A program made the translations under genes and the position numbers. From an uncultured Gammaproteobacteria bacterium (GTDB lineage Bacteria; Patescibacteriota; Microgenomatia; Daviesbacterales; UBA10151), in assembly GCA_964649615.1 (NCBI GenBank), contig CAZYPW010000007.1, positions 8,734 to 72,733 of the forward strand: a stretch of 64,000 nt of DNA, given 5' to 3'. Positions 28,023 through 51,328 of the stretch are shown here, one piece after another. Numbering within the stretch: position 1 is the stretch's first letter; each line of letters begins with the position of its first letter. The notes under the pieces were generated by a model. It did not search any database. It was not told where the DNA came from and saw only the letters and a program-made list of their open reading frames with translations.

Positions 28023-29432
28023 ATGAGTAATGTTCCTCCAGAGAAGATTTTTAAAAGCTATGATATCAGAGGCGTATACCCTGAAGAAATAAATGAAGAA
28101 TTTGCTATTCCTATCACCAGAGCAATTTATAAACTAATACTAGATCAATTAAATTCTGTGGGTCCTTTAACTGTAGCTGTGGGGCGTGATATGAGACTAT
28201 CCTCCCCTGCCCTATTTGAAAATGTTACTAAAACATTAATTAAGTTAGGTGCTAAAGTAATAGATTTAGGAATTGTTTCTACCCCCACCTTTTATTATGC
28301 AGTTTTTAAAGGGGGGTTAGATGGAGGTGTACAGATTACTGCTTCCCATAATCCCAAAGAATATAACGGCATAAAAATAGTTAGAAAATCTCCTACAGGT
28401 TTAGTCAAGATTGGTAAATCTACTGGCATGGATGATATTAAGAAAATGGCAATTGAAGGAATAGATCTACCAAAAGTAGATGGTGGATCTATTACCAAAA
28501 AGATGGGAGTAGTTGTGGAGGAAGTAGAAAATGCTTTAAGGATTGCCGGAAACCCAATCTTAAATTCCTATAAAGTTGTGGCTGATGCTGCTAATGCTTT
28601 GGGGGCTTTATATATTGAGGAGTTATTTAAACATATCCCCGGTGAATTAATAAAGATGAATTTTGAACTGGATGGAACTTTTCCTGCACATCAGGCAGAT
28701 CCTTTGCAAAAAGAAACTTTAGTTGATTTGCAAAAAAGAGTAGTTAAAGAGGGTGCTGATTTAGGGTTGGCTCCGGATGGGGACGGAGATAGACTATTTT
28801 TTATTGATGAAAAAGGTCAAATTGTACAGCCATCTTTTATTACAGCACTTGTGGCCAGAGAACTTTTGAAAAAACATAAAGGCGAAACAATTTTAGCAGA
28901 GATCCGTTATATCTTAACTCCTAAAAGGATTGTAGAAGAATTGGGGGGAACATTTGTTATTACCAAGGTAGGCCATGCTTTTATTACAGAACAACTTCAT
29001 AAAACTAAAGGAATATTTGCAGGTGAATCATCAGGACATTATTTCTTTAGGGAAACAGGCAATGCTGAGTCTCAACTGCCAGTTATTTTGACAGTTTTAA
29101 AAGTTATGACAGAGGAAGGTAAAAAATTATCAGAAATAGTAGAAGATTTAAGGAGATCTCATGAGTCAGGGGAGTTTAATTTTAGAGTGAAAAACACCCC
29201 GGAGGTTTTAGCAGCTATAAAAAAAGAGTTCTCTGATGGGCAAATAGATGAATTAGATGGAGTGGCCATCTCATATACAGATTGGAGACTGTCTTTAAGA
29301 TCTTCTAATACAGAACCATTACTAAGGTTAAATGTAGAAGCTGATGTTGGTACCTCTCTGGAGGATAAAAAACAAAAAGTAATAGATTTAATTAAAAAGC
29401 ATGCCATCTTAGAAGATGGTAGTGGTCATTAG
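28023..29432 (+). CDS. phosphoglucomutase/phosphomannomutase family phosphohexomutase
   Basis: Active-site TASHNPKEYNGIK, metal loop APDGDGDR, sugar-binding GESSGHYFF. Confidence 0.82.
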   Translation: MSNVPPEKIFKSYDIRGVYPEEINEEFAIPITRAIYKLILDQLNSVGPLTVAVGRDMRLSSPALFENVTKTLIKLGAKVIDLGIVSTPTFYYAVFKGGLDGGVQITASHNPKEYNGIKIVRKSPTGLVKIGKSTGMDDIKKMAIEGIDLPKVDGGSITKKMGVVVEEVENALRIAGNPILNSYKVVADAANALGALYIEELFKHIPGELIKMNFELDGTFPAHQADPLQKETLVDLQKRVVKEGADLGLAPDGDGDRLFFIDEKGQIVQPSFITALVARELLKKHKGETILAEIRYILTPKRIVEELGGTFVITKVGHAFITEQLHKTKGIFAGESSGHYFFRETGNAESQLPVILTVLKVMTEEGKKLSEIVEDLRRSHESGEFNFRVKNTPEVLAAIKKEFSDGQIDELDGVAISYTDWRLSLRSSNTEPLLRLNVEADVGTSLEDKKQKVIDLIKKHAILEDGSGH

Positions 29433-29471
29433 GTACTTGTAAAAAATATTTAAATATGATTTAATATTTTT

Positions 29472-29603
29472 GCATCAAGAGTTCATGTACCATACGGTAC
29501 GTGACGGCAACCGGAAAGAACGGTGCCAAATCCTTAGAGAGGAAGATGCGTCCTGAGAAAAGTCGAAGGAAAACTTTAAGCCTCTCGAGTGAGAGGTTTT
29601 TTT
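29472..29603 (+). promoter_or_regulatory. S-box (SAM-I clan) riboswitch with intrinsic terminator, upstream of metK
   Basis: P1 GCAUC/GAUGC, J1/2 AAGAG, P3/J3-4 GGCAACC-GGAAAGAAC-GGUGCCAAAUCC. P2 is a plain GUACC-AUA-CGGUAC hairpin with no kink-turn block. P4 is minimal. Terminator CCUCUCGAGUGAGAGG+U7 at 29581-29603. The aptamer GAGAGG can alternatively pair with the terminator 5' arm. Confidence 0.65.
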
Positions 29604-29708
29604 AATCGGACTGAAGTAAAAAACAATTATAATTTTCTTAAATTGTTTTTTGCAAGGGAGATCGCTTGCAAAAATTGCGAATAAGCAATTTTTGACAAGG
29701 GAAAAAAC

Positions 29709-30824
29709 ATGATTAAGACTAATGGTATAACAACATTTACATCAGAATCAGTTTGTGCTGGCCATCCGGATAAAATCTGCGACCAGATTTCTGATGCTAT
29801 TTTAGATGCGGTTTTATCCCAAGATCCTCAAGGCAGAACAGCCATCGAATGTTTGGCTGGAAACAACAGACTGATTATTGCAGGAGAGGTAGGGGCAAAA
29901 GCGAAAGTAGATTTTAAAAAAATTGCCAGAGACCAAATTAAAAGGTTGGGTTACACTGATCCTAAATTTAACTTTTCAGATAAATCCCCTATTGAAGTTT
30001 TTGTCCATGAGCAATCTCCGGAAATTGCAGTGGGAGTAAAGAAAAAAGGTGCAGGTGATCAGGGTATGATGTTTGGATATGCCTGCAGGGAAACAACTGC
30101 TTTAATGCCGCTGCCTATTATGATGGCACACTCTTTGACCAAAAGAATGGATACTGTCAGGGAAGAAAATATTGTCAAATACTTAAGGCCGGATGGAAAG
30201 TCTCAGGTGACTATAGAATATAGAAATGGTAAACCAGATAAAGTATTGCAGGTTGTGATAGCGGTGCCCCATAAAGAAACTGTTAACTTAGATGAAGTGA
30301 GAGAAGATGTCTATAATTTTATAGTTGTGCCGGTTTTGGAAATGTATGGATATAAAATTAAGAAAAAGGATTTAATTGTTAATGGTACAGGAATCTGGCA
30401 CAATGGCGGGCCGGCATCTGATTGCGGTTTAACTGGTAGGAAAATTGTAGTTGATACATATGGAGGATATGCCAGAGTGGGTGGTGGAGCATTTTCCGGG
30501 AAAGAACCGTCAAAAGTGGATAGGGGCGGAGCATATGCTGCCAGATTTTTGGCTAAAAATATTGTGGCAGAGGGTTTAGCAGAAAAAGCAGAAGTGAGAC
30601 TGGCATATTTTATCGGGGCTAAAAAACCCACTATGGAAGATGTGGAAACTTTTGGCACTAACAAAAAGAGCCATAAAGTAATAATCTCTTTTATGAATAA
30701 GATTTTAGATACATCTGTTTCAGGAATTTTGCAGGGATTGGATTTACAAAGACCAATTTATTTACCAACTGCTGCATATGGTCACTTTGGCCGTGAAGAA
30801 TTCCCCTGGGAAAGAATAGTTTAA
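29709..30824 (+). CDS. metK: S-adenosylmethionine synthetase
   Basis: FTSESVCAGHPDKICDQISDAILDA, GAGDQGMMFGYA, GGGAFSGKEPSKVDRGGAY. Confidence 0.95.
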   Translation: MIKTNGITTFTSESVCAGHPDKICDQISDAILDAVLSQDPQGRTAIECLAGNNRLIIAGEVGAKAKVDFKKIARDQIKRLGYTDPKFNFSDKSPIEVFVHEQSPEIAVGVKKKGAGDQGMMFGYACRETTALMPLPIMMAHSLTKRMDTVREENIVKYLRPDGKSQVTIEYRNGKPDKVLQVVIAVPHKETVNLDEVREDVYNFIVVPVLEMYGYKIKKKDLIVNGTGIWHNGGPASDCGLTGRKIVVDTYGGYARVGGGAFSGKEPSKVDRGGAYAARFLAKNIVAEGLAEKAEVRLAYFIGAKKPTMEDVETFGTNKKSHKVIISFMNKILDTSVSGILQGLDLQRPIYLPTAAYGHFGREEFPWERIV

Positions 30825-30888
30825 TTCTTCTGTCATTGCGAGCCCCGAAGGGGCGTGGCAATCTTTATTTTGCTATAATTTCATTTAC

Positions 30889-31458
30889 ATGAGTAATTTT
30901 AAAGACTTTTATCATTATAAAGGCGCTGAGTTAACACCTTCTGAAAAGGTGGAAAGAAAAGTTATAGAAATTTTGCTTAACTCACAACTTCCTGATAGCC
31001 AAAGAGAAAGTTCTATTGTCTGGGAAATAAAACACTCTTCAGGTTGTGTACAAATTGCCAGAGTTTTAGCTCAAAAAAGAAACCTCGATGCTGATATTGC
31101 TGCAACAGCATCACTACTTCATGATATCTATGTAATTGTGGAAGGAAAATATAAAGATCATGCAAAACTCGGTGCACCGATAGCTGAAAAAATTCTGAGA
31201 GAAATAGGTGGATTTTCAGATGGGGAAATAAAAACAATAACTGATGCGGTCGCACACCATAGTGAAAAAGAAGTGTATACGGATAATCCTTATATAGAAA
31301 TAGTTAAAGATGTTGATGTGTTTGACTGCTCATTTTATAAAAATGCTGAAGGGTATTACAGATTACATAAAAGTGGAGAAATTGTTAGAGAGTATGAGAA
31401 TAGAATTAAAAAGGTGAGAGAAGAATTCAATCTGCCTCCTGACCCAATTTTCAGATGA
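30889..31458 (+). CDS. HD-domain phosphohydrolase (YqeK-like)
   Basis: H...LLHDI...H...D metal-binding pattern, ~190 aa. Confidence 0.65.
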   Translation: MSNFKDFYHYKGAELTPSEKVERKVIEILLNSQLPDSQRESSIVWEIKHSSGCVQIARVLAQKRNLDADIAATASLLHDIYVIVEGKYKDHAKLGAPIAEKILREIGGFSDGEIKTITDAVAHHSEKEVYTDNPYIEIVKDVDVFDCSFYKNAEGYYRLHKSGEIVREYENRIKKVREEFNLPPDPIFR

Positions 31459-32897
31459 ATAGTATACCAGATCCAATTTTTAAAAAAGATTTAGATAAAA
31501 TTTCCTGGAAAAAAATTTATGATAGGGAATATGGAGTACAGTATTCTGAAGCAGCTGTATCTCTTTTGGCTTTTGCGAGTTATCATTTTCCTAAAACTTC
31601 CGTTGCACAAGTTATTATCCCCGGAGAAGGTAACAACACCTCATTTTATATTGATGATGTTTCTTGGCTAGAACTGGTAGAAGGTCTTAATAAGAAATAT
31701 ACTGTTAATGTAAAGCAATTAGAGAAATACGAGAGACAATTTTTATTTGATGGAAAAAATTATTTAAAAATTACTAAAAAAGTATCTAAACTCAATTTAA
31801 AAAAATTAACTAACAAACAACTACTTTCCCTATTTTTAGATCACCAGGACAAGAGGAATAAATACTCAGTGTTTGCTTGGTCTGCTTTTATTTTAAATAA
31901 CTATGTAGCAGACAGAGCAGTATCGATTTTAGAGCCTTACATTAAAAAGCATAATTTAGTAAATCAAAAACAGAGAATTATTGACGCTTTGTTTACACCT
32001 GAAAAACATGCGGCAGTATTACAATTACAACAAGAAGTAGAAAAACATAATGGAAAATTAACAAATAAACAGTTCGATACATTGTATGAGAAATTTAACT
32101 GGCTTTCTTGTTTAGATATTCAAAATAAACCCTGGAGTAAAGAGGAATTTAGACAACACATAAAATCATTTACTAAATCAGATAAAACAAACAAAATATC
32201 ATTTAGAGAAATTGTTAAAAAGTTAAAACCCTCAAAGAAAGATTTAGAATATCTCCAAATGGCAAAAAGGTTTGTTTATATAAAGGATGCAAGAGATGAC
32301 TTTAGGCGAGAAAGCGTATTTTATTCAATCAATTTATGGAAAGAAATAGGAAGAAGGATGGGAATTTCAGCAGAAGATACGAGCTATTTACAAGATTCGG
32401 AAATAATAGCCTTTTTGAAAGACAAGAATAATACTGATTTAGACAAAATTTCTCGATCGAGAAAAAATGGTTTTGTAATATATATTGGTTCCAATAAAAA
32501 AGTAATTTGTTCACAAGGAGACCATATACTTGCTGCTCTTAAGTTATTTAAATTAGACTTTGAGGAAGAGAAAACACAAGAGATAAAAGGAAGAGTTGCA
32601 TCAAAAGGGTTGGCGAAAGGTAATGTAGCAATTGTTAAAGGTGTAAAGGATTTGGATAAAGTAAAAATGGGAGATATCTTAATTGCTGTTACTACTCATC
32701 CGGATTATGTTTCGGCTATGAGGAAGGCTGTGGCAATTGTGACGGATGAAGGTGGAATTACATCTCATGCTGCGATAGTTTCCAGAGAATTTGGAATTCC
32801 TTGTATTGTTGGAACAAAACTTGCAACAAAAGTTTTAAGGGATGGAGATATGGTAGAAGTTGATGCTAACAGTGGGGTTGTAAAGAAACTAAATTAA
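31455..32897 (+). CDS. two-domain protein: unknown ~380 aa N-terminal region plus C-terminal PEP-utilising-enzyme swivelling phosphohistidine domain
   Basis: C-terminus GDILIAVTTHPDYVSAMRKAVAIVTDEGGITSHAAIVSREFGIPCIVGT (GGxTSHAAI catalytic His motif). Stop overlaps the next start (TAATG). Confidence 0.65.
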   Translation: MNSIPDPIFKKDLDKISWKKIYDREYGVQYSEAAVSLLAFASYHFPKTSVAQVIIPGEGNNTSFYIDDVSWLELVEGLNKKYTVNVKQLEKYERQFLFDGKNYLKITKKVSKLNLKKLTNKQLLSLFLDHQDKRNKYSVFAWSAFILNNYVADRAVSILEPYIKKHNLVNQKQRIIDALFTPEKHAAVLQLQQEVEKHNGKLTNKQFDTLYEKFNWLSCLDIQNKPWSKEEFRQHIKSFTKSDKTNKISFREIVKKLKPSKKDLEYLQMAKRFVYIKDARDDFRRESVFYSINLWKEIGRRMGISAEDTSYLQDSEIIAFLKDKNNTDLDKISRSRKNGFVIYIGSNKKVICSQGDHILAALKLFKLDFEEEKTQEIKGRVASKGLAKGNVAIVKGVKDLDKVKMGDILIAVTTHPDYVSAMRKAVAIVTDEGGITSHAAIVSREFGIPCIVGTKLATKVLRDGDMVEVDANSGVVKKLN

Positions 32898-33634
32898 TGT
32901 ATATTAAACTTTTTAATGAAATTTCCAAAAATGATGTAAAGGAGGTAGGTGGTAAGGGTGCATCTTTGGGGGAAATGACTAATGCTGGTATCCCAGTCCC
33001 TCCTGGATTTGTAATTACCACAGAAGCTAATGGTGTAATTCATGAAGAAGAAATATTAAAAGCCTTTGATACGCTAAATACTGAAAGAGTTTCTGTTAGG
33101 TCATCAGCAATCGCTGAAGATTCTTTAAGAGCTTCCTGGGCAGGGCAGTTAGAAACTTATTTAAATGTTACAAGAGAAAATCTAATTGAAAGTATTAAAA
33201 AGTGCCGGGAATCAGTAAAATCAGAAAGGGCAAAAACATATGCCAAGGAATATAGGTTATCAGATGATCAACTGGCTATGGCAGTAGTTATACAAAAAAT
33301 GGTCGATGCTAAAGCAGCTGGAGTTATGTTTACTGCTAATCCTGTAACTTCTGATAAAGAAGAAATAATGATTGAATCAGTTTTGGGATTAGGAGAGAAA
33401 CTTGTACAGGGATCAGTTACTCCGGATAACTTTATTGTTGATAAGGGAAGTGTAGATATAAAAAGTAAAGATTTACAAGGAGAGCAAACCATAGCTGATG
33501 AGGTAGTTAAGAAATTAGTAGAACTGGGAAAAAAGATAGAAAAGCACTGGGGAAGCCCACAAGATATAGAGTGGGCAATTGATACAGATAATATGATTTG
33601 GATCCTTCAATCAAGACCGATTACCAATTTGTAA
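32897..33634 (+). CDS. stand-alone PPDK_N-type ATP/nucleotide-binding domain protein (pyruvate phosphate dikinase / PEP synthase / rifampin phosphotransferase N-domain family)
   Basis: VGGKGASLGEM, VRSSAIAEDSLRASWAGQLETYLNV, AVVIQKMVDAKAAGVMFTANPVT, QDIEWAID...ILQSRPIT. Confidence 0.75.
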   Translation: MYIKLFNEISKNDVKEVGGKGASLGEMTNAGIPVPPGFVITTEANGVIHEEEILKAFDTLNTERVSVRSSAIAEDSLRASWAGQLETYLNVTRENLIESIKKCRESVKSERAKTYAKEYRLSDDQLAMAVVIQKMVDAKAAGVMFTANPVTSDKEEIMIESVLGLGEKLVQGSVTPDNFIVDKGSVDIKSKDLQGEQTIADEVVKKLVELGKKIEKHWGSPQDIEWAIDTDNMIWILQSRPITNL

Positions 33635-33670
33635 ACGATAGATTTTTTTAAGTTTTGGTATACTTCAGTC

Positions 33671-34477
33671 ATGAATAAACCAATTATTACTTTAACTTCT
33701 GATTTTGGAGTACAGAGTCAAGGAGTTGGAAATATGGAAGGGGTAATTGCCCAAATTGCCCCGGATGCCCGGATTATCCATCTAATGCATGGTTTACCCA
33801 GTTTTGATATCAGAGCTGGGGCACGCACCATGGAAGTTATCCAATTTATGCCTGTCGGTTTTCATGTATGTGTAGTTGATCCAGGAGTTGGTACATCCCG
33901 CAAGCCGATAATAATTCAGGTTAAAAGGGGAGATTATTTTATTGGTCCAGATAATGGAGTTTTTATATCTGCAGTTAATATTCTAGGAGGTCCCAAAAAA
34001 GTAGTAGAAATTACCAATCCTAAATTTATGATCCAGCCAGTTTCACCTATTTTTCATGGTAGACATATTTTTGTCCCGGCTGCAGCATATCTTGCTAAAG
34101 GTATCCAGATTGAAGAGTTTGGTTCAAAATTATCCTTTGATCAATTAGCCCCTGCTCCATATACAGAAGCTGTTTTAAGCAAGGGTGTGATAAATGCTGA
34201 AGTAATTAATATCAATAAATTCGGCTCGCTCAACCTTAATATTCTTCATAGTGTTTGGGATCAATTGAATCTTATGCTTGGACAAGTTGTAACAATTACC
34301 TTCAATCATAAAACAATGAAAATGCCTTTTGTAGAAACTTTTGGTCAGGTTAAGCCAGGCGAAGCTTTAGTTTTAAAAGATGATTATGGCAGGGTAGAAG
34401 TGGCCATTAATTTAGGAGATTTTGCCAAAAAATATCAGATTAAAATCGGTGATAAATTTAAATTTAGCAAACTTTAA
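33671..34477 (+). CDS. SAM hydroxide adenosyltransferase / DUF62 (fluorinase-chlorinase-like SAM hydrolase) family protein
   Basis: ITLTSDFG, VVDPGVGTSRK, PDNG, IFHGRHIF, ETFG...GEALVL. Strong match to COG1912-type proteins. Confidence 0.85.
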   Translation: MNKPIITLTSDFGVQSQGVGNMEGVIAQIAPDARIIHLMHGLPSFDIRAGARTMEVIQFMPVGFHVCVVDPGVGTSRKPIIIQVKRGDYFIGPDNGVFISAVNILGGPKKVVEITNPKFMIQPVSPIFHGRHIFVPAAAYLAKGIQIEEFGSKLSFDQLAPAPYTEAVLSKGVINAEVININKFGSLNLNILHSVWDQLNLMLGQVVTITFNHKTMKMPFVETFGQVKPGEALVLKDDYGRVEVAINLGDFAKKYQIKIGDKFKFSKL

Positions 34478-34496: not shown

Positions 34497-34766
34497 TTAT
34501 TTAATCTCAAATTCTGAAAAGTTTTTAAGGGGATCTTTTCTTATTTCTACTTCTTCGACTTTGGCCAAAGTAGGGCTTTTGTGGCACCATGCCAAGAATT
34601 TATTTAAATTTTCCTTTTCCCCTTCAGCTTCTATATAAACAGACCCATCCTTTTCATTTCTGGCAAAACCTTTAATAGATAATTTATCTGCTTGGTCTTT
34701 GGCAGATACTCTAAAAAATACTCCCTGAACTAACCCTGTGACTTTAATATTTAAATGTTTTTTCAT
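34497..34766 (-). CDS. acyP: acylphosphatase
   Basis: VTGLVQGVFFRVSAKDQADKLSIKGFARNEKDGSVYIEAEGE. Confidence 0.85.
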   Translation of the reverse strand: MKKHLNIKVTGLVQGVFFRVSAKDQADKLSIKGFARNEKDGSVYIEAEGEKENLNKFLAWCHKSPTLAKVEEVEIRKDPLKNFSEFEIK

Positions 34767-35554
34767 GTAAAATCCAAAACTAAAGGAAGATGATCAGAAA
34801 CCTCTTCTTCTAAAACCTTAAAATCTTTCAAATTGATATCTGAAGAGATAAAAGCATAATCTGCAAATTTTTGGAAATTTGGGGTTTTAGCATAAGGGCT
34901 TAAGTCACTTCTAGTTCTTGGGATATTATATTCTTTAATTAAATTTCTTAAATTCTCCTCAAATAGATTAATACACCTTGTATTGGGTAAGAGATTAAAG
35001 TCTCCAACAATTATCTTTGATCCAGTTTTAGAATTCATAATTTCTAATACTTTTTTGGTCTCCTTAAATCTATTTGGAGAATCAAGTTTATTAAAAGGAT
35101 ATGCAGTACCATGAAAGTTAAAAACCGAGAATTCTCTACCATCTACACTAAAACTAATATATTGAAGTGGAGTGGCCAGATTAGAAAAATCTGGCTTTAA
35201 AGCTCTAAAAGAATGATCCTGATATATAAAATAATCCTGATGGGAAGTTATTTTAATAGAATCTTTAACAAAAATAGCAGAACCATACTTTAGATCAAAT
35301 TTTACTTTGTGAGGCTTTATATCAGTATCAAATCCTTCTAAAGTTGGAAAGTAAAATACCCTAAATTTTGGTAAAATAATTCTTATTTCCTCAAGTAGAT
35401 TGGTCTGAATACTTTTCTGCAATTTTTTATCAGATTTTGTGGAATATATTTCTTGAAAACAGAAGATATCAGTATCTTTTGACTGATGTTTGATAAACTG
35501 GATTAGTGGTCTATACATTTTCCCACCCCAAGTATTTAGCGAAATAAGCTTCAT
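34763..35554 (-). CDS. endonuclease/exonuclease/phosphatase (EEP) family protein, tandem paralog 1
   Basis: MKLISLNTWGG...DIFCFQEI...GDFN...SDHLPLVLDF. Confidence 0.75.
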   Translation of the reverse strand: MKLISLNTWGGKMYRPLIQFIKHQSKDTDIFCFQEIYSTKSDKKLQKSIQTNLLEEIRIILPKFRVFYFPTLEGFDTDIKPHKVKFDLKYGSAIFVKDSIKITSHQDYFIYQDHSFRALKPDFSNLATPLQYISFSVDGREFSVFNFHGTAYPFNKLDSPNRFKETKKVLEIMNSKTGSKIIVGDFNLLPNTRCINLFEENLRNLIKEYNIPRTRSDLSPYAKTPNFQKFADYAFISSDINLKDFKVLEEEVSDHLPLVLDFT

Positions 35555-35558
35555 AATT

Positions 35559-36338
35559 TTATGAAAACTCCAGAATCATGGGTAGATGATCAGATATCTC
35601 AATATCTGGAACCTGAAATTCTAAAACTTTTACATTAGGGGATACTAAAGTGTAATCTGCAAATTTGTCACCCCAGGTATAAAGCTTACTTCTGGTAGTA
35701 GGAATTTTATTTTCCTTAATTAAATTTATTAAATCTCGTTCTAAAATTTTTAGACTCTTGGTATTTATATTTAAATTAAAATCTCCACATAATATTTTTG
35801 CTTCCTCTTTATATTGAGCCAAAAAGTTAACAACTTTTTCAGACTGGCTAATTCTTGATGAATGATCTACCTTTTTCCCTTTTCTCCATACTCCATGTAA
35901 GTTACAAACGATGAACTTTTTATTTTGGTGGGCGAATGTTATATATTGCATATTTCTTGGTAGGGTATTTAAATCTTTGGGATTAAAACTATCTTTGGTA
36001 CGAAATACAAAAAAATCCCGGTATGAAGTAACTGGTAATTTTTTATTGATAAATATAGCTAACCCCCAGGAAAGATTAAAATTTATAAAATTAGGTTGAA
36101 AACTACCAGCTATGTAATTATCTACACAGGATGCAAAGTATCCTCGGTATTCAGGTAAGATTTTACAAAACTCCTCATACAGATTTAATCTAAAGCCTGC
36201 ACTTTCAGTAATATTAGAAGTTGTTTTAAACACTTCTTGCAGACAAAAAATATCAGTATCTTGTGAGTATTTCTTTATGAAATCCATTAAGGGTTGATAC
36301 ATTCTTCCTCCCCAGGTATTTAGCGCAATAAGCTTCAT
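35559..36338 (-). CDS. endonuclease/exonuclease/phosphatase (EEP) family protein, tandem paralog 2
   Basis: MKLIALNTWGGRMYQPLMDFIKKYSQDTDIFCLQEV...GDFN...SDHLPMILEF. Start set at the internal Met aligned to paralog 1. The ORF-track N-terminal extension is the reverse translation of the tRNA below. Confidence 0.7.
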   Translation of the reverse strand: MKLIALNTWGGRMYQPLMDFIKKYSQDTDIFCLQEVFKTTSNITESAGFRLNLYEEFCKILPEYRGYFASCVDNYIAGSFQPNFINFNLSWGLAIFINKKLPVTSYRDFFVFRTKDSFNPKDLNTLPRNMQYITFAHQNKKFIVCNLHGVWRKGKKVDHSSRISQSEKVVNFLAQYKEEAKILCGDFNLNINTKSLKILERDLINLIKENKIPTTRSKLYTWGDKFADYTLVSPNVKVLEFQVPDIEISDHLPMILEFS

Positions 36339-36379
36339 ACATAGAATTATACTCGAGTAGGTGGTAAAATTTAAGACTA

Positions 36380-36451
36380 CGGAGTGTAGTTCATCGGTAG
36401 AACGCTCGGCTGGGGGTCGAGAAGTAGGAGGTCCAATTCCTCTCACTCCGA
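36380..36451 (+). tRNA. tRNA-Pro (anticodon GGG)
   Basis: Hand-folded cloverleaf. 7-bp acceptor with C1:G72 and A73 (bacterial tRNA-Pro identity elements). U8, D-arm GUUC/GAAC with G18G19. Anticodon loop C-U33-GGG-G37-G. T-stem GGAGG/CCUCU. T-loop UCCAAUU (C at position 55). No encoded CCA. Confidence 0.7.
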
Positions 36452-36545
36452 CTTTTGTTATGTATATCCATGTATCCATACATAAATACACTAAGTAATT
36501 TTTGGGGTATTGACACCTTTGGGATATATTTGGTAATTTTAATTT

Positions 36546-38969
36546 ATGGCACAAACTTCAAATAACAACGAAGCTAAAAAAGCTGCAATTTCTGCTGCTA
36601 TGGCCCAGATTCAAAAAACTTACGGGACTGGTTCTATTATGAGGCTTGGTGAAAGAGCGGAAAAAATGACCACCCAGGTGATCTCCACAGGTTCTATTGC
36701 TTTGGATTTGGCGCTGGGAGTGGGAGGTCTTCCCAAAGGCAGGATTATTGAGGTTTATGGGCCTGAGGCGGGAGGAAAATGTGTTTCAACAGATACTATT
36801 GTTTTTACAGAACATGGAATGTTACCTATTGGTGTTTTCGGTGATTTATTTAAACCAGGCTTTCAAAAAAAGAATTTAAGCATATATTCTGAAGGTGGAA
36901 CTGCTACAACAAGCCACTTCTATAATAGTGGTTTTAAAAAAACTATTAAGATAAAAACTGCGTATGGTTATGAATTAGAGGCAACGCCTAATCATAGAAT
37001 TAGAATTATAGATAAAAAAGGTGACTACGTTTTTAGACGTTTAGATAAGTTGAAAGAAGGTGATCGGGTCGCTATACAGAGAGGCCAGGGGTATTTTGGT
37101 CAAGGTGTAAATTTATCTAATTTCAGATATATATTATCAAGGTACAATAACGGAAAGGAGTATGATGCTCCTTTAACAATTGATTCTCAGTTAGCGAAGT
37201 TAATGGGATATTTAGTTGGTGATGGCACATGTACATTAACAGGTTTGAGTAAAAATACTATTAGCATAACTATTGCCGATGACGAAGTAGCAGCAGATTT
37301 TATAGAAGTTTGTCTAAATATATTTGGTGAAGAACCAAAGGTGACTTTAGATAAACGTAGTAAAAATACTAAACAGTTTCGTATCCATAACGCCAAAGCT
37401 CGTTCATTTTTAGCCTATTGCGGTTTAGATTATAACTCCGCCGCAGATAAGCATATTCCTTACTCAATTATGCAGTCACCAAAACCGGTTGTAACCTCTT
37501 TTTTATCAGCTATATTTGAAACAGATGGGTGTTTCGTAACTAATACTATCGAATACTGTTCCAAATCAAAGGTTCTGGTTAGACAGATCCAGACTGTGCT
37601 ATTAAATTTTGGGATTATATCTAGGTTAAAAACTAGGATAGTAAGCGATAAGGAATACTTTTATCTTTACATTGATGGGCGTAACGATTTAGAGATATTT
37701 GCTCAAAATATTGGTTTTATTTCAATTAGAAAACAAAATAAATTACTGTCTTATACAGAAAAAAAAGTTAGTCAATATCAAAGTAATTGTGATACTTTAC
37801 CTATAAATAGAAAGATCCAGCAGTTAATGATAGATTATCGTAAAGGTGTAGGTACTACTACCAGAGAACACTGGGATGTAGTGTATGACTATCTACCTCA
37901 AACATCAGGATTTTCTATGCTGACATATCCACGCCTTAATAAAATATTAAAGACGTTTATTTCGGCTCAAACATTGGCAATTTACCAACACCTAAAGGAA
38001 ATATACTCAAAAAATATCTTTTATGACAGAATTGTCCGTATCTCTCCCTCTAAGTCAGTGGTAGTAGATTTTACTGTACCTTCTACAGCCTCCTTTTTTG
38101 GTAATGGATTTATTAATCATAATACTAGCATTTGCTTACATGTTATTGCAGAGGCTCAAAAAAAGGGTGGGGTGGCAGCTTTTATAGATGCAGAGCATGC
38201 GCTAGACCCACAAAGGGCCCAAAAAATTGGGGTGAACTTAGATGATCTTTTAATTTCCCAGCCTGATACAGGGGAGCAGGCCTTAGAAATTGCGGAGAGC
38301 CTCATACGCTCCGGGGGGATTGATGTTTTAGTGATAGATTCTGTAGCGGCATTGGTTCCCAGAGCTGAACTGGAAGGTGAGATGGGTGATGCGGTTATGG
38401 GGATGCAAGCCCGTTTAATGTCGCAAGCATTACGTAAGCTGACAGGAGCTGTTTCTAATACAAACACAATCATTATTTTTACAAATCAGCTGCGTCAAAA
38501 AATTGGGGTAATGTTTGGAAATCCGGAAACAACAACAGGGGGATTAGCTCTTAAGTTTTATTCATCAATAAGACTGGACGTCAGGAAAATTGAGAATATA
38601 AAGTCTGGTGATATGGTGGTGGGCTCAAGGCATAGAGTTAAAGTGGTTAAAAACAAAGTGGCTCCCCCATTTAGAATTGCAGAATTTGATATGGATGAAA
38701 ATGGAATTATTCATGAAGGAGAGATTTTGGATGTTGGTATAGAATTGGGGATTTTAACCAAGTCCGGAGCATTTTTAAAATGGGGAGAGAATATGTTAGG
38801 ACAAGGTAGAACTGCAGCTATAGATTATTTAAAGGCTAATAAAAAAGAAGCGGAAAAATTAGAGAAAGAAATAAGGGAAGCTTGGGGCAAACAAAAGGAA
38901 GGCAAAGAGAAAATAGTAGTAGGACCGCAAGAAGAAGAGGGCGCAGGAACCGTAGAAGAAGCCGTATAA
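36546..38969 (+). CDS. recA: recombinase RecA precursor containing a 448-aa intein (mature extein about 359 aa)
   Basis: Extein [30 protein letters not shown] | intein | [29 protein letters not shown]... L2 loop and C-terminal domain intact. Confidence 0.92.
36780..38123 (+). mobile_element. intein with LAGLIDADG homing-endonuclease domain inserted in the RecA Walker A P-loop
   Basis: Starts with Cys after GGK. Block B TPNHRI. LAGLIDADG-like motifs [10 protein letters not shown] and [12 protein letters not shown]. Ends ...NGFINHN followed by +1 Thr. In-frame with the extein. Confidence 0.85.
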
Positions 38970-38978
38970 TATTCTTTA

Positions 38979-39686
38979 ATGCCCAAAGTTACTTTATTAG
39001 AACCACAAAAGTCGTCCAAAGGACGATCTGCCTATGGCGGAAAAAACCCACACAGATTTAATATTTTTTTAGATGGTACTTTTGCTTTCGGAGCGGATGA
39101 GGATTTAGTTATTGAGCATCGGTTAGTGGTGGGAAAAATACTTGACACATCCGATGTGAAAAAACTGTTATTTGAGGTAGAAGTTGGTAAGCTGATGGAA
39201 CGAATGTATCGGTTATGGAATATTAGACCTAGATCAGAGAAAGAAATAAGAGATTATTTAAAAAGTTTATCTTTTAAAAGAAAAATTAAGGATCAAGAAG
39301 ACATTTCTGATGCAGCAGTTGAGCTTTTAATAAATAAATTAAAACAAAAGGGGTTATTAAATGATGAACAATTTGCTAATGTCTGGGTGGAAGCAAGAAG
39401 AAAAAGCAAGAAAAAGGGCAAGATTGCCCTAAAGATGGAACTTATTCAAAAGGGGATTAATAGAGATATTATAAATGAGGCAATTAAACAGTCTTCTGAA
39501 GAAGAACAACTATTAGCTGAGAGGGCTTTAGAGAAAAAAATAAAGGTTTGGGAAAAATTGCCTTACTTGGAATTTAAGAAAAAAGGCATGGAGTTTTTAT
39601 TAAGGCGTGGATTTGAATATGATGTAATCAAAAGTACAATTGAAAAAATCTTACAAAAGAGATACAATAGCAGAGAAGAAGAATGA
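38979..39686 (+). CDS. recX: RecA regulator RecX
   Basis: Immediately downstream of recA. N-terminal RFNIFLDGTFAFGADEDLVIEHRLVVGK resembles Firmicutes RecX. Repeated three-helix motifs with KGLLNDEQFA. Confidence 0.75.
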   Translation: MPKVTLLEPQKSSKGRSAYGGKNPHRFNIFLDGTFAFGADEDLVIEHRLVVGKILDTSDVKKLLFEVEVGKLMERMYRLWNIRPRSEKEIRDYLKSLSFKRKIKDQEDISDAAVELLINKLKQKGLLNDEQFANVWVEARRKSKKKGKIALKMELIQKGINRDIINEAIKQSSEEEQLLAERALEKKIKVWEKLPYLEFKKKGMEFLLRRGFEYDVIKSTIEKILQKRYNSREEE

Positions 39687-50952: not shown

Positions 50953-51328
50953 GGTGCCTAGGAAGCGAGTAAGCCAGATTCTGTTTTAGATGATATTTAT
51001 CTTCAGTGTGATTATTAGTCACTCTGATCCGCCTTATGGCGAGATGCTCCTTACTTTGATTATCAAGCGAGCAGCTTAATCAATTCTAGGATTGCAGCAG
51101 GGAGGATTGCCCTTCGACTCGCTTCGCTCACTCAGGGTTATAACCCTGAGTATTTGAAACTAATCGAAAACCCGTTAGCTTGGTCGTTTCATTCGGCGCA
51201 ACCCGATTCGTCACTGTTGCTCTAAACTTTGTCTTACGACCATCCGCCTTTCGGCGGACACCTTGCTCTATGCTGTCTGGACTTTCCTCTCCGCCAAAGG
51301 CGGAGTAATCATCCTTCTTCCTAGGCTT
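50953..51328 (-). ncRNA. rnpB: RNase P RNA (bacterial type A)
   Basis: The reverse complement carries a 10-bp P1 (GCCUAGGAAG/CUUCCUAGGC), P3 hairpin CUCCGCCUUUGGCGGAG, P4 5' strand GAGGAAAGUCCAGAC, CAUAGAGCAAGGUG, and P4 3' strand ACAGAAUCUGGCUUA. Confidence 0.85.

Follow-up and report, generated by a model that had tools for sequence, protein, structure and literature searches.

A gene for an S-adenosylmethionine (SAM) synthetase that lies behind a riboswitch and is followed, on the same strand, by genes for an HD-domain hydrolase, a split phosphotransferase and a SAM-cleaving DUF62 enzyme raises the question of whether these genes make up one SAM-centred operon or are neighbours with separate roles. 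We examined this question for a locus in a 64,000-nucleotide (nt) stretch of contig CAZYPW010000007.1 (positions 8,734 to 72,733 of the forward strand), which in its entirety is called the window here and from whose first letter all window positions are counted. The source is Candidatus Daviesbacteria (Microgenomates, candidate phyla radiation, CPR), the name carried by the public copies of its DUF62 and HD proteins. A prediction made earlier from the sequence had read the locus as a SAM synthesis/salvage or SAM-derived metabolite module. Our comparison of gene neighbourhoods, domains and leader sequences indicates that the locus probably consists of three separable units, viz., the riboswitch with metK, the HD gene with a two-component dikinase, and DUF62, which became juxtaposed head to tail in the Daviesbacteria lineage. 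What the data establish are the domain identities, the class of the riboswitch, the gene overlaps and gaps and the conservation counts; the transcript ends, the chemistry of the enzymes, their stereoselectivity and the acceptor are inferred.

Organization of the locus

The five genes are all encoded on the plus strand with successive gaps of 64, -4, -1 and 36 nt. The features of the locus are as follows (aa, amino acids).

29467..29586, plus strand: SAM-I/IV riboswitch aptamer (RF01725, 38.7 bits, model positions 1-99)
29578..29606, plus strand: putative intrinsic terminator of the riboswitch expression platform (terminator scan, hairpin of -12.2 kcal/mol)
29709..30824, plus strand: metK, methionine adenosyltransferase, 371 aa (Pfam and TIGR01034)
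30835..30871, plus strand: terminator-like hairpin (30835-30862) and CUUUAUUUU tail after metK (from folding, putative function)
30871..30879, plus strand: extended -10-like box TGCTATAAT (consensus match only)
30889..31458, plus strand: HD-domain phosphohydrolase, 189 aa (PF01966)
31455..32897, plus strand: 480-aa protein predicted to bind the acceptor and provide the phosphohistidine swivel of a two-component dikinase (PF00391)
32897..33634, plus strand: ATP-grasp (PPDK_N) nucleotide-binding component of the predicted dikinase, 245 aa (PF01326)
33656..33664, plus strand: extended -10-like box TGGTATACT (consensus match only)
33671..34477, plus strand: DUF62 SAM hydrolase, 268 aa, forming adenosine and probably specific for (R)-SAM (PF01887, PF20257)

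Pfam and NCBIfam matches bear out the gene content and coordinates given in the original prediction (metK, HD, split phosphotransferase and DUF62). The split phosphotransferase pair is likewise present, with its order corrected: the acceptor-plus-His protein comes first and the ATP-grasp protein second. The metK product matches the three Pfam S-AdoMet synthetase domains (PF00438, PF02772 and PF02773) and passes the equivalog cut-off of TIGR01034 (463.6 bits against 309.4). Upstream of metK, a ribosomal-protein block ending in rplM-rpsI is followed by glmM (28023-29432), and a convergent acylphosphatase gene (34497-34766, minus strand) bounds the block on its 3' side. The GC content gives no island-like break at the locus. 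A defence-island reading was rejected, as PADLOC found no match for the HD protein, either dikinase component, DUF62 or a nearby protein of the endonuclease/exonuclease/phosphatase (EEP) family.

Conservation of gene order

An alignment of homologues of the 480-aa protein was used to scan a genome collection (25 loci) and a metagenome collection (43 loci). Together with tblastn searches using the window proteins, and after de-duplication at 97% identity, this gave 50 non-redundant loci. In 37 of the 41 assessable loci, among them those of Micrarchaeia and Diapherotrites archaea, the gene immediately upstream of the 480-aa gene is HD. Three of the four exceptions were examined and have a DUF3800, Fic or recombinase gene at this place; the remaining exception is L025, a distant locus at 26% identity. 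An ATP-grasp gene is found directly downstream of the 480-aa gene in 9/42 loci. Within flanks of about 8 kb, metK is present only in the L019 group and in L063 (2 of 34 loci), and DUF62 in none of the 34. Thus, of the gene order of the window only the HD and 480-aa adjacency is conserved, and the rarity of metK and absence of DUF62 around the HD-dikinase genes speak against the predicted SAM synthesis/salvage or SAM-derived metabolite module. The HD-dikinase proteins are 50-75% identical across Microgenomates and 41-49% identical in four closer archaeal loci of the DPANN group, and their neighbours are unrelated in most of the 50 loci.

The two loci with metK share the window order of glmM, metK, HD, 480-aa gene, ATP-grasp gene and convergent acylphosphatase gene. 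The slot held by DUF62 in the window, between the ATP-grasp and acylphosphatase genes, is taken by a gene for a Bro-N protein in L019 and is empty in L063. Elsewhere, the pair occupies other settings. In four Levyibacteria groups, the HD-dikinase lies between purE and purC of an operon with the order purA, purB, purE, purC, purF, purN, purD and purL. In these loci (L005 6882-10894, and also L018, L020 and L045), the HD and 480-aa genes are inserted between a class I purE, with its SAHR and AAHL motifs, and purC, and neither purK nor an ATP-grasp partner was found in the 17-kb Levyibacteria locus. An AMP-phosphorylase-like gene (426-567 aa; Glycos_trans_3N, Glycos_transf_3 and PYNP_C domains) occurs in L022 (9292-10995), L023 (9459-10985) and L024 (1773-3053); in two archaeal loci of the Diapherotrites type it directly follows the 480-aa gene, and in a Gottesmanbacteria locus it is one gene off.

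Two variants of the 480-aa gene were also observed. A second swivel paralogue of 428-448 aa is encoded directly upstream of HD in some Levyibacteria and Daviesbacteria (L002 6033-7379, L029 11919-13205 and L063 6124-7371); it is 33% identical to the window 480-aa protein, in the swivel region only, and is absent from the window. In L019 (7998-9210, identical with L072 and L073; Daviesbacteria of the UBA9644 type), the 480-aa gene is split into open reading frames (ORFs) of 288 and 142 aa, which could reflect a frameshift, a pseudogene or an assembly error. A literature search for an HD-swivel pair in CPR returned nothing relevant.

A survey anchored on DUF62 yielded 11 non-redundant loci, with the HD-dikinase nearby in one and metK nearby in four (L026, L029, L031 and L086), all four with a DUF62 at least 74% identical to the window copy. 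The distance between DUF62 and metK in these close Daviesbacteria relatives is about 1.5-6 kb, and the layouts vary: DUF62 is on the opposite strand between rpsI and glmM in L026, upstream of glmM on the same strand in L029, adjoining rpsI on the opposite strand and ~6 kb from metK in L031, and 2.3 kb 3' of metK in L086, after a toxin-antitoxin pair, a short-chain dehydrogenase/reductase (SDR) gene and a GNAT gene. The seven loci with a DUF62 at most 68% identical have no metK; in them, the gene that DUF62 overlaps or abuts codes for Dus, HerA, enolase or a SAM-dependent methyltransferase, and NUDIX genes are often close by. In the assembly CAYNFQ01 (L027 and L010), metK and DUF62 are on one contig and the HD-dikinase is on another. 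Since the metK-DUF62 layouts vary and the distant DUF62 loci are without metK, their proximity is a clade-level feature of the post-rpsI region rather than a conserved operon, and the HD-dikinase unit goes with neither gene.

The same variability could be taken to mean that metK and the acylphosphatase gene enclose a cargo slot prone to rearrangement, in which the HD-dikinase and DUF62 landed independently and carry no functional meaning. Apart from the toxin-antitoxin, SDR and GNAT genes of L086, relatives carry unknown ORFs and the second swivel protein (L029 and L063), a 322-aa unknown protein (L026) or the Bro-N gene (L019), and in some loci the place of HD before the 480-aa gene is taken by a recombinase, Fic or DUF3800 gene. 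We consider this account very unlikely: it leaves the closeness of DUF62 and metK unexplained in 4/4 of the close relatives sampled, and it is otherwise largely compatible with three separable units and offers no separate mechanism.

The SAM-I/IV riboswitch before metK

The riboswitch that had been predicted upstream of metK is present, though not as the S-box class named for it. Rfam was searched twice. With gathering thresholds applied to the whole window, RNase P RNA and a tRNA were the sole matches and no riboswitch was found, and a local E-value scan of 29380-29760 gave a full-length match (99/99 model positions) to SAM-I/IV, RF01725, at 29467-29586 with an E-value of 6.5e-5, its score of 38.7 bits being 2.4 below the gathering threshold of 41.1. 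SAM-I/IV was the clan member retained at this site, with one overlapping, lower-scoring SAM clan match discarded. The P1 helix of the aptamer pairs 29472-29476 with 29545-29549, a 3' hairpin starts at 29550, and an additional 5-bp, 13-nt hairpin (29531-29543) follows P3, ahead of the 3' strand of P1. The leader fold has a z-score of -7.1 against shuffled sequence and its minimum-energy fold gives the aptamer helices. Four related loci have metK leaders with scores over the gathering threshold (L019 44.5, L063 48.1, L026 47.1 and L029 46.7 bits), and the P2 stem has compensatory changes over five metK leaders, in a MAFFT/RNAalifold alignment of which only P1 to P3 are usable, the 3' half being misaligned by inserted hairpins. 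Since orthologous metK leaders exceed the gathering threshold, we take the element as real, and the model comparison assigns it to SAM-I/IV rather than to the S-box. The extra junction hairpin probably explains the score deficit of the window copy; L086, the closest relative, has a similar hairpin insert and is also under gathering. Thus, a SAM-I/IV sub-variant with an extra junction hairpin falls beneath the Rfam threshold.

The end of the aptamer and the metK ATG are 123 nt apart, with the terminator at 29578-29599 (stem AAGCCUCUC/GAGAGGUUU, followed by a U-run) in between. In an alternative, antiterminator pairing, 29533-29543 pairs with 29581-29589, and this becomes the minimum-energy fold once the 3' arm is omitted. 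We hypothesize that with SAM bound, the aptamer would keep 29533-29543, leaving the CCUCUC segment free to pair downstream and form the terminator, and that without SAM the two segments would pair with each other as the antiterminator. The first unit would thus be a SAM-I/IV riboswitch governing metK through transcription termination, and the aptamer and intrinsic terminator that precede metK agree with the riboswitch control foreseen from the sequence. In L019, L063, L029 and L086, the metK start codon is inside the hairpin 3' of P1, and these copies look translational. The SAM-I/IV riboswitches of metK in Daviesbacteria would therefore use two expression platforms, a transcriptional one in the window and a translational one in relatives.

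The region between the terminator and the metK ATG (29612-29708, plus strand) contains three AT-rich hairpins (29618-29651, 29647-29674 and 29669-29694) and a Shine-Dalgarno-like direct repeat, TTTTTTGCAAGGGA at 29646 and TTTTTGACAAGGGA at 29689. This segment of ~110 nt is missing from relatives and might serve extra attenuation or ribosome-binding-site mimicry.

The DUF62 hydrolase

The DUF62 protein matches PF01887 (SAM_HAT_N, 151.3 bits) and PF20257 (SAM_HAT_C, 61.5 bits) and aligns end to end with solved hydrolases at E-values of 1e-38 to 1e-39. Its Asp70, Arg77 and His129 are kept and align to the VDPGVGTxR and FHGR motifs of PH0463 and the structure 2zbu. The Asp-Arg-His residues form a water-activating triad that is missing in fluorinase and chlorinase, and the conserved triad supports the prediction that this is an enzyme of the SAM-cleaving type. 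Its scores are under the NCBIfam equivalog cut-offs (NF053629, 148.7 against 470; NF058624, 138.2 against 350) of the family named (R)-S-adenosyl-L-methionine hydrolase. Stereoselective hydrolysis of the inactive (R,S)-SAM epimer has been published for one bacterium and two archaea. By this likeness, the DUF62 unit would cut SAM, most likely the inactive (R)-sulfonium epimer, into adenosine and methionine as a housekeeping clean-up. The pairing of metK with a SAM-cleaving enzyme had appeared unusual, and the clearance of the inactive (R)-SAM epimer that is now described for this family takes the paradox away. Whichever its physiological role, a SAM synthetase near a DUF62 enzyme is no futile cycle.

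In distant CPR loci (L083, L084, L085 and L038), DUF62 is repeatedly found beside NUDIX hydrolases and SAM-dependent methyltransferases, the latter of the FtsJ or Methyltransf_11/23 type and sometimes with overlapping stop and start codons. The varied operons of DUF62 in CPR and DPANN, often near NUDIX and SAM-dependent methyltransferase genes, fit a role in the clean-up of damaged SAM.

Possible transcript boundaries

The 64-nt gap between metK and HD holds a hairpin (30835-30862, -15.2 kcal/mol, z -2.19) with the tail CUUUAUUUU; a simple terminator scan omitted it, as its stem has an internal loop. The box TGCTATAAT, a near-consensus extended -10, is located 9 nt 5' of the HD start codon. 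As no Shine-Dalgarno sequence precedes the HD start, a near-leaderless HD transcript is suggested. In L019, the box TGGTATAAT lies over the metK stop codon, 6 nt before the HD start, and boxes resembling a -10 element occur upstream of HD in many unrelated loci. The HD stop and the 480-aa start overlap by 4 nt (ATGA), and the 480-aa and ATP-grasp genes by 1 nt (TAATG), and owing to these overlaps the three proteins are almost certainly co-translated. The 36-nt gap between the ATP-grasp gene and DUF62 has no hairpin (fold of -3.6 kcal/mol, z 0.19), and the extended -10-like box TGGTATACT is 6 nt 5' of the DUF62 start codon. These features suggest that the metK-HD hairpin and the -10 boxes mark transcript boundaries. 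The metK transcript would probably end at its own hairpin with the U-tract, and DUF62 may be expressed through transcription that runs on from the dikinase genes or that starts at its own -10 box.

Could the riboswitch instead control the whole locus as one operon that makes and salvages SAM, with the HD protein and phosphotransferase processing SAM-derived products and DUF62 recycling SAM? The appeal of this model lies in the five genes on one strand with short gaps, in the missing hairpin before DUF62, in the metK found upstream of the HD-dikinase also in L019 and L063, and in L029, where DUF62, metK and the HD-dikinase are within 8 kb on one strand. At the consensus level, the hairpin with its U-tract and the TGCTATAAT box split metK from HD, contrary to the single SAM-regulated unit of the original prediction. 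Beyond the window, the flank counts for DUF62 and metK around the HD-dikinase, the Bro-N gene or empty slot in place of DUF62, the two gene sets on different contigs of CAYNFQ01, the HD-dikinase in DPANN archaea and purine operons with no SAM genes near, and the riboswitch of relatives, which would act on the metK start codon only, all argue against it. We therefore consider a single SAM operon improbable; if true, it would constitute a new SAM salvage pathway, which the evidence does not support.

Several observations do weigh against the three-unit reading that we prefer. The genome is AT-rich, the promoters and terminators were called from matches to a consensus, and promoter-like sites are no more frequent in the window than in shuffled sequence. 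The five genes are co-directional and closely spaced, no terminator separates the ATP-grasp gene from DUF62, and the metK stop and HD start of L019 are only 7 nt apart, so that metK and HD may be co-transcribed in some relatives. Also, metK and DUF62 remain close through several Daviesbacteria rearrangements, which could reflect weak selection for proximity and not inherited synteny alone. Finally, one group doubts whether every DUF62 enzyme has (R,S)-SAM hydrolysis as its physiological role.

The HD protein and the predicted two-component dikinase

The HD protein matches PF01966 with 43.9 bits, and its residues H49, H78, D79, H91, H123, H124 and D141 are invariant in 16 sequences. Its AlphaFold2 (AF2) model (pLDDT 93) has fold matches to generic small nucleotide-type HD hydrolases only (TM-score about 0.5, best E 9e-4), and a sequence-profile search against the Protein Data Bank gave E-values of 0.03-0.08 (lowest 0.027). 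All NCBIfam matches are under cut-off (HDIG 24.8 against 27.6), which leaves the protein outside the characterised HD subfamilies such as HDIG, YqeK, RNase Y and dNTPase, and the family is narrow, with 334 matches in a word-based search.

In the 480-aa protein, the PEP-utilizers swivel domain (PF00391) is found at residues 404-474, and the AF2 model (pLDDT 80) has a helical domain at ~68-336 and the swivel at 340-478. The motif TDEGGITSH holds His438, which is invariant in 11 homologues, and an Arg/Asp-rich motif of the helical domain, KDARDDFRR, is likewise invariant. The best solved-structure matches in Foldseek are those of rifampin phosphotransferase (RPH; 5hv2 and 5fbt) with E-values of 6.6e-12 to 4.4e-11 over ~550 columns and a TM-score of only 0.40, the domain orientations being different. 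The ATP-grasp protein matches PF01326 (PPDK_N) with 246 bits. No match attains the NCBIfam equivalog cut-offs for RPH and phosphoenolpyruvate (PEP) synthase. Two-component dikinases (HpeHI, CreHI and PpsAB) and the T/SxxGGxxxH motif have been described previously (PMC12167813). The helical domain alone finds only 352 clusters among 1.84 billion representatives, and these include 733-789-aa fusions of PPDK_N, helical domain and swivel domain. The fused homologues support a partnership with an ATP-grasp protein even where the genes are not adjacent.

Based on these similarities, the second unit would be a translationally coupled set of HD, 480-aa and ATP-grasp proteins, of which the latter two would form a two-component, ATP-dependent water dikinase. 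The ATP-grasp protein would load the beta-phosphate of ATP onto His438, and the swivel domain would carry the phosphate to an acceptor in the helical domain, with AMP, Pi and the phosphorylated form of a small molecule as products, and the HD enzyme would act on the same pathway. The genomic contexts hint at a purine nucleotide, or else a compound with ribose phosphate, as the acceptor.

A NUDIX hydrolase domain is fused to the C-terminus of one 480-aa homologue (P0382; L087 4692-6575), in parallel to the HD partnership. A HD gene 3 kb off in L087 was rejected as a member of the same HD family, as it is 28% identical in the HD motif only.

These hints lead to a further explanation of the neighbourhood, in which the HD-dikinase acts on a purine nucleoside, nucleotide or ribose phosphate and the genes form a loose metabolic cluster rather than an operon; the placement of the HD-dikinase beside metK, an ATP consumer, and DUF62, an adenosine producer, in Daviesbacteria would then be functionally meaningful. 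It draws on three contexts that all involve adenine nucleotides, namely the purE-purC position in four Levyibacteria groups, the AMP-phosphorylase-like gene near the HD-dikinase in three DPANN or Gottesmanbacteria loci and the nearness to metK in Daviesbacteria, and further on the likeness of the HD model to the small nucleotide hydrolases YpgQ, YqeK and SP1746, the NUDIX fusion and the KDARDDFRR motif. Set against these are the unrelated neighbours in most of the 50 loci, the weak fold matches of the HD protein, a substrate that is not assignable by sequence, and the origin of the purine and AMP-phosphorylase contexts, each of which comes from a few related genomes. On balance, we regard both the adenine-nucleotide link and the meaning it would lend to the placement of the HD-dikinase near metK and DUF62 as unlikely.

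At a still more tentative level, and with rather low expectation, we propose that the HD protein and the RPH-type swivel protein, with an ATP-grasp protein adjacent or elsewhere, may form a hitherto undescribed housekeeping module in the very small cells of CPR and DPANN, by which a purine nucleotide or ribose-phosphate metabolite would be phosphorylated and hydrolysed. It would be tied to SAM turnover in Daviesbacteria, e.g., through adenosine or AMP from DUF62 and the dikinase, and would sit in Levyibacteria inside the purine operon, at the point where purK normally follows class I purE. The HD-dikinase as a replacement of PurK, considered for the Levyibacteria locus with its class I purE and no purK, was set aside as a general function because the pair is also found in DPANN and mostly without pur genes, and the Levyibacteria loci have no adjacent ATP-grasp gene. 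Being so conserved in small genomes with few genes, the HD-dikinase probably has a central role and is a reasonable target for enzymology.

Other features of the window

Downstream of the locus, recA (36546-38969, plus strand) encodes an 807-aa product with an intein and a LAGLIDADG homing-endonuclease domain, RecA domains being at both ends and Intein_splicing and LAGLIDADG_3 in the middle; recX follows at 38979-39686. A tRNA-Pro(GGG) gene (36380-36452, plus strand) is overlapped by the long 5' extension of a mechanically called ORF (35559-36554, minus strand), whose true start, that of an EEP-family gene, is probably near 36365. This EEP gene is a tandem paralogue of 34763-35554 (38% identical), and relatives keep the acylphosphatase and EEP genes in synteny. 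A class A RNase P RNA (50954-51324, minus strand) scores 108.5 bits, just over the gathering threshold of 100, with model positions ~135-200 replaced by unaligned inserts.

Comparison with known systems

Each component of the locus is of a known kind, and the HD-partnered dikinase of CPR and DPANN is an uncharacterised variant. The window riboswitch shares with SAM-I/IV (RF01725, clan CL00012) the core segments GCAUCAAGAG, CGGCAACC, GGUGCC and AGAUGC, the hairpin 3' of P1 and the site directly 5' of metK, and differs from it in the additional 13-nt hairpin described above. It also appears to use a transcription terminator, whereas the copies of L019, L063, L029 and L086 bury the metK start codon. 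In comparison with the classic S-box (SAM-I, RF00162), a short 5-bp hairpin lies where P4 would be expected, L086 having a similar one, and after P1 there is a second hairpin, as in SAM-I/IV.

The two Pfam domains and the hydrolase triad of the window DUF62 are common to PH0463, the TTHA-type enzyme, StDUF62 and SaciSAMH. The window gene follows the dikinase genes, whereas the Sulfolobus gene is in an operon with genes for a triphosphate tunnel metalloenzyme and an adenylyltransferase for nicotinamide mononucleotide (NMN). The HD protein has in common with YpgQ, YqeK, SP1746 and 2pq7 the all-helical HD fold of ~190 aa and the H...HD...H...HH...D ligand pattern, although its structural and sequence likeness to them is weak.

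As in HpeHI, CreHI and PpsAB, the window encodes an acceptor and swivel-His protein with the T/SxxGGxxxH motif and a separate ATP-grasp protein. The helical acceptor domain of the 480-aa protein shares the fold of that of RPH, and the fused relatives share the RPH domain order, but the window domain is shorter (~270 aa) and its likeness to RPH-type NCBIfam models begins only from about residue 246 or 305. Unlike the known dikinases, the window system has a minimal ATP-grasp protein of 245 aa and a conserved HD partner, and the ATP-grasp gene is adjacent in just the 9/42 loci noted above. Also, the module is found in tiny CPR and DPANN genomes and not in the aromatic-catabolism or antibiotic-resistance contexts of the known dikinases.

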